Shown here: one piece after another, positions 31,647-60,469 of the stretch | How the letters are laid out: each line of letters begins with the position of its first letter | Numbering within the stretch: the stretch's first letter is position 1 | From: an uncultured Acidobacteriota bacterium | GTDB lineage: Bacteria; Acidobacteriota; Terriglobia; UBA7540 | Assembly: GCA_963804995.1 (NCBI GenBank) | Contig: CAWDSK010000006.1 | Location: 448,001-512,000, forward strand | DNA length: 64,000 nucleotides | Direction: 5' to 3' | Translations under genes and position numbers: made by a program | Notes under the pieces: model-generated | Told to the model about the DNA's origin: nothing | Seen by the model: the letters and a program-made list of their open reading frames with translations, nothing else | The model's database searches: none

Positions 31647-32330
31647 GTAGCGGGGAGCGCAGGGGTGGACGTCCTTTGCCCTACTCCGCGGCTCGTCATC
31701 TGGCCGCGGGTACGGAACGTCGCAATCCCATGCGAGTATTTTCTCGCGTCGCAGACACGCCATGCCGGCCATTATAGGGCTTGCACCCATGTCCGCAAGT
31801 CGTCATTTCCGAAATTAGAGCCGCGGAGTAGTGCTGAGATGCGCACAACTCTACCTTGCTATTTAAGAACTCCCCGCCTCAGATGAGGAGGGGTGGTGCT
31901 GACAAGATAGTGGATGGCGCTGAAGGACGTGTAGCGCGGACCTGTTTTGTAGGTCCGCGGGTCTTCCCCCCATGACAACGAAAAGCCGCGGACCTCAAGA
32001 ACAGGTCCGCGCTACCTTGGCGAAGTGACCCCTCACCCGGCGGCGCATGGCCGCCACCCTCTCCCCTCGGAGAGGGCGGTTTAAACTCCTGCCTTCTCCC
32101 AGGGGAGAAGGTGCTGAGGTACGAAGCGGATGAGGGGTTTCTTGGATTGCGGCTCATCATCTGGCCCCGTGTCCGGAGCGGATTTCGCCAGGCCATCAAA
32201 CGCCGGTGCTTTGATCGATGGCGTCGCCGAAGCGACATGCCGCCCCTGATAGGCCTTGCACCCGTGTCCCCAAGCGGTCATTGCCCATTGTAGTGCCGCG
32301 AAAGAGGGCCAAGCACGCCCAGCTCGCGCT
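31647..32330. repeat. Cluster of REPIN-like elements (31647-31854, 31931-32015, 32020-32144, 32148-32330)
   Basis: GTAG...CTAC bounded palindromes. 32020-32144 is nearly identical to 52926-53049. An internal sequence TCGTCATCTGGCC...CTTGCACCC...GTCATT is shared with 33073-33383. Confidence 0.8.
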
Positions 32331-49686: not shown

Positions 49687-49771
49687 CTCCTCTCCTCCAC
49701 GGTGATCTTCTTCGCACTCCCGCCCCAAAACTTCGAATCCAGCGCACTGCTTACAATCAGCAGGAGTAGCG

Positions 49772-51684
49772 GTTGCGGTAGGGATACCGGTTACCCGGTA
49801 CCCCCCGCACGGATCCGTACGTGCGCTGGTTAGCGCATACGGCTCTTATCTCGGATGTGTGGCGGCGAACCGTTGGGATGGCCAAGGATGCACAACGTGC
49901 GGAGCAGGCAACCAGCAGGCCGCAAGCTTCCCCAGTCGGTCCCAGTTGAGGCGGTGGCGTTGACTGCGTTGACGCAGTTGTGTTCGCCACAGTCGGGTCA
50001 ACCGTTCCCGAAAGATTCGCAGGCGGTCGAGGTTTCCCGGTACCGCGTGATAGTTGAAGTAGCCTTGCACGACCGACCGGAGCCATTTACCCGTATCCGC
50101 GATGGGATCGTGCCGACGCTGCCGGAGTTGTTGCTTGAGTTCCTGCAACTTCCCCCGCAGGCGCTTGCTGATCGTCTTCCGCTTCACGGTAAATTGCCCC
50201 CTCCGGTTCTTCCCGCTGATATGCGTGAAGCCCAGAAAGTCGAACGTCTCCGGCTTACCTTCTCCTCTCCGTTTCCGGTAAAGTTCGGCAAACGGCCCGA
50301 ACTCGATCCGGCGCGTTTTGTCAGGATGCAGTTCCAATCCAAACTTCCCCACCCGCTCCCGGAAATCCTCCAGAAAGCGGTCGGCTTCCGTCTGCGATTG
50401 GAATCCAAGGACCGTATCGTCGGCATACCGCACCACGACCACGTCTCCCCGGGCGTGCTTCTTGCGCCACGCCTGCACCCACAGGTCAAAGACGTAGTGC
50501 AGATAGATATTCGCCAGCAGGGGCGAGACCACCGCCCCTTGTGGCGTACCCATCTCCGTCTCCGACCATTCGCCTTCCTCCCTCACCCCGGCTTTCAGCC
50601 ATTTCTGGATGAGCCGGAGAATCCGGGGGTCGGCGACGCGATGCTGCACGAACTTGAGCATCCATTCGTGGGATATCGAATCGAAAAATCCACGAATGTC
50701 CGCGTCAAGAACGTAGTTCACGTGCTTCACCGTGAGCGCGTACGAGAGCGCGTCCAGCGCTTGATGCTGGCTGCGTCCCGGTCGAAAGCCATACGAGAAG
50801 CCCAGAAAGTCTTCCTCGTAAATCGCATTGAGGATGGTGACCACGGCCTGTTGGACGATCTTGTCCTCCAGTGCCGCAACCCCCAACGGACGTTGCCGCC
50901 CGTCGCCTTTCGGGATATACGCCCTTCGCGAGGGCTTCGCTCGGAATGCTCCGCGGTGGACCCGGCTGTGCAGATCGACGAGTCGACCTTCCAGCCCGCT
51001 TTCATACTCCTGCCACGTCATGCCGTCTACTCCCGGTGCAGCTTTTCGCTTCAAGGCGTAAAAGCTTTCCCGCAGCAGATCGACCGTTAAGTGGTGGAGC
51101 AAGGCCGTGAACTTCATCTCCCTGTGTTCCTTCGCGGCTTTCCGCACACCCGCGAGTCCCTGGGACACGCGTGCCCCGCTCTGTGTCGGGTGCGTGTTAG
51201 GCCAACGGGTGTTCTCCTTGATCAGCGGCCTTCCCTCCTCATTCTCCGCCAACGGCTTCCCGTCTTTGTTCAAATGATTCATCGGTACTGTTCCGCTGTC
51301 CGACTCCTCGAAAGCGTGCAGGCGGGCTGTACGGCCATCGCCTTTTCCCGCCGTCCGGCCACGATCTACGGCGGCCGGCGCCTCCGAGGTCTCCCGGTTC
51401 TCGTGCAGAAAGTGTCTAGGCGTGTCTGGGGTCTACGACTACGCAGGACTGTGCCGGAACTCGCGTTGGCGTCCCGGCCTCATGTTGCCTTCCGTTTAGT
51501 CTGAAAACGTCGGCGTCCTGATTGGACATTTTCGAAGCTCAATACCCAGCCCACCTATTCCCCTGTTTACGCTTCACCGTGCGCCTCACGACGCCCAGCG
51601 CAAAACTCGGGGCCGAGTGGATCGCTGCTCCTTCCTCGTGAGAAATTTTCATTCTCTGCTTTCTGCCGGTTTATCCCGGCGCAC
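49772..51684 (-). mobile_element. Complete group II intron (about 1.9 kb)
   Basis: 5' end GTGCG at 51684; domain V GAGCCGTATGCG...CGCACGTACGGATC; domain VI ending CTACCGCAAC at 49772; internal RT ORF. Confidence 0.92.
49846..51282 (-). CDS. ltrA: Group II intron reverse transcriptase/maturase, without an endonuclease domain
   Basis: APGVDG, RPLG, FSYGFRP, GTPQG, RYADD, FDFLG and the X domain GYFNYH. Confidence 0.95.
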   Translation of the reverse strand: MNHLNKDGKPLAENEEGRPLIKENTRWPNTHPTQSGARVSQGLAGVRKAAKEHREMKFTALLHHLTVDLLRESFYALKRKAAPGVDGMTWQEYESGLEGRLVDLHSRVHRGAFRAKPSRRAYIPKGDGRQRPLGVAALEDKIVQQAVVTILNAIYEEDFLGFSYGFRPGRSQHQALDALSYALTVKHVNYVLDADIRGFFDSISHEWMLKFVQHRVADPRILRLIQKWLKAGVREEGEWSETEMGTPQGAVVSPLLANIYLHYVFDLWVQAWRKKHARGDVVVVRYADDTVLGFQSQTEADRFLEDFRERVGKFGLELHPDKTRRIEFGPFAELYRKRRGEGKPETFDFLGFTHISGKNRRGQFTVKRKTISKRLRGKLQELKQQLRQRRHDPIADTGKWLRSVVQGYFNYHAVPGNLDRLRIFRERLTRLWRTQLRQRSQRHRLNWDRLGKLAACWLPAPHVVHPWPSQRFAATHPR

Positions 51685-51727
51685 CAGACCCCCGCCCTAT
51701 GGGGTCTGCGCCAGCCCGAGTGACCCC

Positions 51728-52814
51728 TCACAGAATCAACATGCAATCCCCATAGCTGTAAAAGCGATAGCGGGCGTCAACCGCGTGCTGGTAAGCACGC
51801 AGCACGAAGTCTTTGCCGGCCAACGCGGAAACCAGCATGAGCAAGGTCGACTGGGGAAGATGGAAATTGGTGAGCAGTCCGCGCACCACTTGGAATTTGT
51901 ACCCCGGGGTGATGAAGAGATTCGTTTCACCGCCGCCGGCCTGGATCCGACCGCCGTGCTCGCGCGCCACGTGTTCGAGGGTACGGACGCTGGTGGTTCC
52001 AACCGCGATCACACGACGGTGTCCATCCAGGGCCTTGTTAATAGCTGCCGCAGCCGTGCCTGAAACCTCGTAGCGCTCCGCCTCCATCCGATGGTCTTCC
52101 ACGCGCTCAGTGCGCACCGGCTGGAAAGTCCCCAGTCCCACATGCAACGTAATCTCGCAGGCCTCAATTCCACACACGGCGAGGGCGCCTAGCACCTGCG
52201 GGGTGAAATGAAGGCCCGCCGTCGGCGCCGCCACCGCACCGCGTACCTTGGCGTAAATGGTCTGGTACGTGGTACGGTCGCCCGGTTCGTCGCTGCGGTG
52301 AATGTAGGGCGGTAGCGGTACATGGCCCAGACGGTCGAGGGTTTCTTCGATGGTCCCCTGCCGCGCCCGCAGCCTGACCCGGCGCACCCCATAGTCGCCG
52401 CGATCCAGGACTTCCGCTTCCAACTCGTCATCGCCAAATACCAGCACCTCTCCCGTGCGCACCTTTCGCCCGGGATGAACCAGCCCCTGCCAAATGTCCT
52501 CACTTTCCTGCCGAGTCAACATCAGCTCGGTTTCGCCGGTCAGGAACTCACGAACCGTGGGATTATTCTTTCCAACCTTCTGTGCGGTCAGCCCCCGCCG
52601 GCGCCCCAGCAGCCGGGCCGGAAACACCTTCGTGTTGTTGAACACCAGTAAATCACCAGGTGCGAGGATTTGAGAGATCTCGCGGAATGACCGGTCTTCA
52701 AAGCTTTGCGCCGTACGGTCAAGCATCAACATGCGGGAGGCGTTCGCGCCCGGCGAGCGGCCTTTGCGCGATGAGTTCGGTGGGCAATGCGTAGTCGAAT
52801 TCTTTGAGAAGCAT
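51728..52814 (-). CDS. queA: S-adenosylmethionine:tRNA ribosyltransferase-isomerase, with a +1 frameshift at about 52743
   Basis: MLLKEFDYALPTELIAQRP joins DASRMLML when one base is removed; PLPPYI, AAPTAGLHF and RFYSYGD motifs. Confidence 0.93.
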
Positions 52815-60117: not shown

Positions 60118-60469
60118 CAGCGCAGACCTGTTTTGTAGCGCGGTCCCCCGATTTTGGGGTCCGCGGTTCTTCATTTGGCAAACCCACGAAGCTCCGACAT
60201 GGACGGTCGCGCCGCAACTATTCCTTCGCCACGATACATTTGCTCAATTGGCACAGGAAGAACCGCGGACCTCAACGGCGGAGGTCCGCGCGACAAGAGC
60301 ACTAACTCGCCCCGACGCGTCGGGGCGATTTACGTCGCGTTCACAGCCAGGAGTGGCTGTGCTACAGCTCGGGTTTGGCGGCAGGCGGGCGCGGTAGCAC
60401 AGGCACTCTTGCCTGTAATTGCGGCTTGAGGTTTGAGATGAGCGACACAGCCAGGAGTGGCTGTGCTAC
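60118..60469. repeat. REP/REPIN cluster: a GTAGCGCGG family REPIN (60135-60294) and three GTAGCACAG-family REPs (60342-60469)
   Basis: CACAGCCAGGAGTGGCTGTGCTAC occurs twice, plus an inverted GTAGCACAGGCACTCTTGCCTGT. Confidence 0.8.

Follow-up and report, generated by a model that had tools for sequence, protein, structure and literature searches.

The window analysed here (the whole stretch of 64,000 nt) contains a group II intron lying inside a REP palindrome, which raises the question of whether such an intron is dedicated to REPs and, if so, whether it recognizes their sequence, their folded structure or something that the REPs themselves bring along. The reading that we favour, with a probability of about 75%, is retrohoming of a young, mobile intron of class E type by the usual endonuclease-independent route, with a conserved part of the REP as its target sequence. 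What appears to be new is the dedicated homing into REPs; the route itself is known.

Anatomy of the intron and its insertion site

The intron, 1,913 nt in length and of class E type (IIB-like), occupies positions 49772..51684 of the minus strand; its GUGCG...AAC ends confirm the boundaries originally predicted, and it matches the Rfam model group-II-D1D4-6 at 51429-51649 (170 bits, Rfam model search). It encodes an RT/maturase of 478 aa with a YADD motif (49846..51282, minus strand; 347.8 bits against TIGR04416, cut-off 300), in which Pfam detected RVT_1 alone and no HNH endonuclease domain, in agreement with the claim that the intron lacks an endonuclease. Direct reading of the sequence placed domain V at 49812..49845 (minus strand), with the AGC triad that had been announced, and domain VI at 49772..49811 (minus strand), with a bulged A and the terminal AAC. 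The features expected of a group II intron are therefore present: GUGYG...AY ends, a domain V triad, a bulged A in domain VI and an RT/maturase ORF. The zeta-prime loop of domain V, which has 5 nt in class E introns, measures 4 or 6 nt here, depending on the closing pair chosen, and 5 nt in locus L027. MFE folding did not resolve the structure of domain I, and a search for delta-delta' pairing in the intron gave no informative signal. The splice joint was not seen in the contigs of four sequencing runs (of 20), in which the RNA contigs come mostly from relatives, and the flanks of the window's intron site were likewise absent from the contigs of the same four runs. Contigs of the DNA runs X1-X3 skip approximately 1,270 nt of the ORF (window positions 49869-51142), and ORF-less derivatives of this intron family thus exist in peat and sediment metagenomes; none was found in the host genome (G000).

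The intron is intergenic, approximately 15 nt past the stop of an upstream gene in the same orientation (51728..52732, minus strand), which we take, from its translation, to be QueA-like; the stop lies that same distance before the REP. The 5' exon (51685..51712, minus strand) comprises the 5' arm, loop and 3' arm of the REP, with IBS1 = GGTCTG at 51690-51685, and ends in GGGGTCTG, as had been described. The 3' exon CGCTAC (49766..49771, minus strand) contributes the end of the stem and the complement of the GTAG tag, with IBS3 = C at 49771. Removal of the intron restores the proposed hairpin, with 11 bp in the DNA and -14.8 kcal/mol. The REPs reported at 31931, 55085 and 60118-60135 do exist, but they are of the GGAC short-loop variant, and two of them are degenerate. 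A tag of related sequence, GTAGCGCRGAG, recurs in the window (30747, 30913, 53064 and 58076) and is probably another REP subfamily.

Forty copies share one junction in a RAYT-associated REP family

The host genome (7.55 Mb, 9 contigs) carries 40 copies of the intron, with 99.7-100% identity and identical boundaries wherever these are readable; two of them are cut by contig ends, and one or two near contig ends could be assembly duplicates. So many near-identical copies imply that the intron was probably mobile recently. All 38 readable 5' exons end in RGTCYG (34 TG, 4 CG), and CGCYA opens each of the 39 readable 3' exons (24 of CTAC type, 15 of CCA type). The 36 copies scored on both flanks all fall among the 359 RGTCYG/CGCYA sites present in 7.55 Mb, a concentration far beyond chance; for 35 of these copies the hairpin has at least 8/9 pairs, and for the remaining one 7/9. 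The arm targeted is the one on the tail side of a REP family associated with RAYTs. Four copies occupy a mismatched IBS1 (GTCCG), and no compensating change was found in their EBS1.

Several side observations concern the copies themselves. Across all 40, seven variants (intron nt 58, 373, 732, 858, 910, 1657 and 1704) are common to copies in mixed combinations, which suggests that recombination or gene conversion may have taken place among them. The copy at C6:1168363 carries a frameshift. Related introns have left truncated remnants at non-REP sites of the same genome (C6:842676, C5:460087, C1:441114 and C9:36920), which also holds at least three other RT families, with 32-37% identity to the window's RT and some of them multi-copy (C3:1126646, C1:97964, C9:154739, C6:296931 and others).

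The intron-free host genome yields 285 hairpin matches of the REP family, mostly GTAG-tagged with a CTGG-tagged minority, and approximately 270 REP arms that are mostly extragenic by a crude gene call. The family has the attributes of GTAG-family REPs, namely a short palindrome, a GTAG tag at one end, more than 100 copies and an extragenic location (crude gene call), and its pattern was found in 34 of 36 other genomes of the host's family and in none of 24 outside it. Out of 14 Y1_Tnp matches, the three proteins scanned all passed the NF047646 cut-off. These REPs flank RAYT genes on both sides at two loci (L011 and L012), and related hairpins surround a third (L010). Binding and cleavage of REPs by the cognate RAYT have been addressed biochemically, according to the accessible part of PMC8266576. 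The claim that the intron homes into an abundant REP family is upheld by the 40 copies, by the REP-flanked RAYTs and by sister introns in the same REP family; REPs may also serve the intron as a multi-copy 'safe harbour'.

Could the REP system itself have multiplied the intron? REP/RAYT activity or recombination might have propagated the filled REP as a unit, or RAYT-nicked REPs might supply the priming end, and two intron copies do lie in REPs directly adjoining RAYT genes (C5:56440 and C6:720305), with some others within tandem REP arrays. Nevertheless, the flanking hairpins vary in stem, loop and tag while the intron remains 99.7-100% identical, indicating that the intron moved alone, and the replichore-strand bias described below fits fork priming. 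We therefore regard this explanation as very improbable.

Exon-binding sites

Pairing between intron and target was analysed by covariation in a set of 79 homologous loci, which gave 75 domain I matches, 76 with the window's intron; 12 were dropped, leaving 64 in which the 5' end was clear. The loop of the stem GCCGACG...CGGAAGGC covaries with the 5' exon targets: its pairing with exon positions -6 to -1 averages 5.55 of 6 Watson-Crick pairs against 3.46 in shuffled sets (n = 40 distinct loops), and 39 of the 40 distinct loops reach 5 or 6 pairs. This identifies EBS1 as CAGACU, intron nt 182-187 (51498..51503, minus strand). EBS3 is G249 (51436, minus strand), by its complementarity to exon position +1, which is seen in 60 of 61 introns and in 7 of the 8 where +1 is not C.

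The original prediction had taken TAGACCCC for EBS1. Its position (51428..51435, minus strand) is correct, but the segment is a near-invariant part of domain I directly after EBS3, with an AGACCC core conserved in homologues that have unrelated targets. Its pairing with the 5' exon is at the shuffled level, both over distinct segments (3.32 vs 3.24 of 6, n = 19) and over the whole set (3.11 vs 3.07 of 6, n = 64). In the Rfam D1 model the segment falls at the 3' end, approximately 70 nt from the true EBS1, which is further 5'.

A terminal loop 3' of EBS1 (51463..51473, minus strand) contains alpha-prime (C222) and a weak EBS2-like CGNN. G60 and C222 are complementary in 61 of 61 introns, with two pair types, and more covarying cases were read by eye. 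For EBS2, the best of the 8 registers tried reached only 3.38 vs 2.98 of 5 pairs, a weak signal, and GGCG at -12 to -9 is present in 13 of 31 filled and 16 of 37 empty sites, so that a strong EBS2 was rejected. This agrees with the dispensability of EBS2 for the splicing of IIE introns reported in the accessible text of PMC3753933.

Target strand and replication polarity

Intron orientation flips at dnaA on contig C2 and, as judged from dnaA and KOPS counts, 39 of the 40 copies point away from the origin, which places the target-bearing strand on the lagging-strand template. KOPS polarity was undecided on C1 and C9; on the contigs where polarity could be assigned, 33 of 34 copies have their target on the lagging-strand template. 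With C1 and C9 set aside, perfect-match hairpins are filled in 27 of 62 cases on this favoured strand, against 1 of 73 on the opposite one. A terminus within C3 was considered as the cause of the single off-strand copy and discarded, since polarity is minus throughout C3. A search for the dif site returned no credible one, plain GC skew was too weak to set polarity, and orientation relative to neighbouring genes, from crude gene calls, followed no pattern.

Sequence or structure in target choice

On the favoured strand, perfect-match GTCTG hairpins are filled in 31 of 68 cases and one-mismatch GTCCG hairpins in 4 of 60 (p = 4e-7), so that approximately 45% of the best-match sites are occupied. 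The opposite REP arm, which offers the same IBS1 and IBS3 in an equally good hairpin, is filled in 0 of 109 cases on that strand, and so are 0 of 22 non-hairpin matches, 9 of them intergenic and 13 in called genes (crude gene call). Three hybrid sites, the window's own among them, have a valid tail on each arm; two are filled, both on the favoured strand. The filled arm carries A-15 in 36, A-14 in 35 and C-10 in 37 of 38 copies, and this triple is missing from the opposite arm and from 21 of the 22 non-hairpin matches. Absence of these bases offers a linear explanation of why both kinds of site are left unfilled, and hairpin recognition is not needed: linear sequence suffices for the choice of target and arm. 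Non-REP homologues lean to the same upstream bases, with A-14 in 42 of 61, although these introns are related and not independent. Hairpin stability did not predict occupancy, filled and empty sites being alike (p = 0.65).

Selection alone, with loose insertion and survival just in REPs, seems extremely unlikely as the source of this distribution. It could appeal to the 13 of 22 favoured-strand non-hairpin matches that lie in called genes, but it does not account for the same junction in 38 of 38 copies, the use of a single arm and the filling of about 45% of one site class, in a genome with 5,167 IBS1+C matches.

Structure poses a more serious question, because IBS1 is buried in a stem of -7 to -19 kcal/mol. 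Pairing requires the hairpin to be opened or displaced, since the 3' arm of the stem serves as IBS1 and EBS1 imitates the 5' arm. The folded REP on single-stranded DNA, or a fork pause that it causes, might be recognized or exploited in place of EBS2, with EBS1 invading the stem, much as terminator and attC hairpins replace EBS2 for IIC introns. Every scored copy lies in a hairpin, none of the 9 intergenic non-hairpin matches on the favoured strand is filled, EBS2 pairing is missing at many filled sites and a second lineage, described below, is likewise found at a hairpin. Against this, the non-hairpin matches also lack the upstream bases, the equally good hairpin of the opposite arm is not used, most close homologues reside in unstructured targets, and the two lineages insert at different places, within the stem here and at its 3' end in the second. 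Sequence and structure are inseparable in these data, as the full sequence hardly ever occurs at an unstructured site; on balance, assistance by structure appears unlikely. The same doubt applies to its broadest form, in which REP homing would be a recurrent IIB-like strategy whose particle exploits the REP in its folded form on the lagging-strand template, with an EBS1 that copies a REP arm and invades the stem, so that a non-IIC intron would read DNA structure and parasitise the REP/RAYT system, filled REPs being lost as RAYT substrates.

REP targeting among relatives

A sister intron (92% identity) in genome G005 has EBS1 CGGACU, and its 6 copies are all in REP hairpins ending in CCG, although several of these targets mismatch EBS1. 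Another (88%) in G026, with EBS1 CAGACC, has 3 copies: one in a full REP, one with a REP 5' half and an unrelated 3' flank (L117, possibly a rearrangement between intron copies), and one in a degenerate hairpin whose 3' flank resembles that of the opposite arm. The idea that EBS1 tracks the dominant REP variant of each species was rejected, since 111 of the 153 empty REPs of G026 are CCG and yet its loop is CAGACC, and G005 has both variants empty, with only 33 of 61 CCG. A second G005 lineage (83-86%; 4 copies), with EBS1 CAGACU and a 5' end apparently shifted by 2 nt, has by eye one REP-like hairpin, two degenerate ones and one target with none, and the intron at L016 (84%) lies in a REP. 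At L016, L130, L131, L132 and L138 the 5' end is seemingly 2 bases off the usual GUGCG position, with EBS1 CAGACU.

Most close homologues have non-hairpin targets, as only 4 of 56, the window's included, fold at -7.4 kcal/mol or better. Hence, the expectation that all copies and close homologues would be flanked by these REPs held for the copies in the host genome, at a REP junction wherever readable, and failed for most homologues. REP targeting is a trait of sublineages and not of the whole intron family; a single clean REP-homing clade was not recovered, REP and non-REP targets interleaving with low support among the 80-92% relatives. Sister introns and 5' fragments also lie behind an A-rich TGAAAA repeat (L017, L018, L025, L031, L136, and C2:652257 and C1:206552 of the host genome), a dispersed, non-hairpin element whose loose motif has 235 matches in that genome. 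At L062 intron copies stand in head-to-tail tandem, and at L017 one intron is nested inside the ORF region of another.

A further intron, 54% identical, was found in a genome of another family (G058), where 26 of 30 candidates were scored and 18 of 18 copies lie at the 3' end of a GGAG-tagged REP hairpin (G058:C1, L109, L122 and L148-L163; start GAGCG rather than GUGCG). This hairpin has 554 empty exact copies and flanks a RAYT. Read by eye, the EBS1 loop is GCGGGC and EBS3 is U. Provided that the terminus lies opposite, 17 of the 18 copies are directed away from dnaA. Many non-REP lineages separate the two introns in the RT tree, from which we infer independent origins: REP homing probably arose at least twice. 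In a survey of 250 other genomes of the phylum, 9 had a match at E<=1e-140, with mostly 6 candidates scored in each, and only G206 was multi-copy, with 6 copies whose targets, inspected by eye, are not hairpins. Two class E-type lineages with different EBS1 loops, filling different REP families, thus point to probable convergence.

A model for homing into REPs

Under the favoured reading of sequence-guided, endonuclease-independent retrohoming, EBS1 CAGACU of the spliced RNA-RT particle would pair with RGTCTG and the G of EBS3 with the next C, as the covariation indicates, and the protein would probably read the loop bases A-15, A-14 and C-10 of the REP together with the CGCYA of the 3' exon. 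The RNA would reverse-splice into the single-stranded lagging-strand template at the fork, in keeping with the observed strand bias, and nascent lagging DNA would prime reverse transcription, the chemistry of both steps being borrowed from RmInt1. Mostly extragenic REP arms, combined with a short guide, would offer many tolerated landing sites and may have led to the 40 copies. Filling of approximately 45% of the sites amounts to a natural saturation experiment in which strand, arm and a single mismatch can be told apart in their effects, and the intron provides a testable case of a ribozyme pairing with a target held within a strong DNA hairpin. The forty identical 1.9-kb repeats may in turn promote rearrangement and alter REP functions in transcripts.

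Class assignment and comparison with known systems

The intron RT is 57% identical, over residues 108-427, to a frameshifted RT on pRmeGR4b, and 33-35% identical to the other intron RTs on pRmeGR4b and pRmeGR4d. The accessible text of PMC5894124 places S.me.I4, a disrupted class E intron, on pRmeGR4b, and the frameshifted RT is presumably that of S.me.I4. In the RT tree, which includes a single class E reference and none of class F, the window's RT groups with the pRmeGR4b RT (support 0.948), and the intron is of class E type. Its class E traits are alpha-prime at the stem-loop tip in DId3, the lack of an endonuclease, EBS3-IBS3 pairing and an apparently weak EBS2. Class C introns have CGC as domain V triad; the AGC triad, the 6-bp EBS1 and the insertion inside a stem all depart from that class, and the assignment outside IIC made in the original prediction stands.

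The class E introns S.me.I4 and Cl.be.I2, as covered in the accessible sections of PMC5894124 and PMC3753933, share with the window's intron an alpha-prime in the terminal loop, EBS1-dominated recognition and a weak EBS2, but no REP target or 40-copy burst is described there. A survey found a moderate strand bias for class E introns (PMC8919778, in the part available). For P. putida KT2440, the table in the available part of PMC1525189 gives 2 of 9 copies of a group II intron as REP-associated, which does not make it a dedicated REP homer there. This was the nearest case in a literature search without subscription journals and the Zimmerly database, which returned no dedicated REP-homing group II intron in the text available; the accessible portions of PMC3733652, PMC2936281 and bioRxiv 10.64898/2026.09.22.753630 contain nothing on introns in REPs.

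A close mechanistic parallel is that of RmInt1 and RmInt2, class D introns of Sinorhizobium meliloti, which likewise lack an endonuclease and have a lagging-strand-template bias, attributed to fork priming for RmInt1, together with multi-copy intergenic or mobile targets and protein-read distal positions near -15 and +4 (PMC4615759 and PMC5894124, accessible sections). They differ in RT class (33-35% identity) and in targeting an IS instead of a REP; RmInt2 uses both inverted repeats of ISRm17, whereas the window's intron uses one REP arm only. Class C introns, which insert at terminators and attC sites, share insertion at DNA hairpins, fork-strand bias and high copy number, and a IIB intron after an attC site is also on record (PMC7923331, in the part available). 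Their EBS1, however, forms 3-4 bp, not 6, and they insert after a stem-loop, whereas the window's intron inserts inside the stem with strict sequence requirements, and structure reading is not needed. Finally, REP-targeting insertion sequences such as ISPpu9, ISPpu10, ISPsy8 and ISPa11 resemble this intron in having all copies in REPs, according to the same portion of PMC1525189, but they move by DNA transposases, in contrast to the RNA-guided retroelement described here. REPs thereby join ISs, terminators and attC sites as natural homing targets of group II introns.
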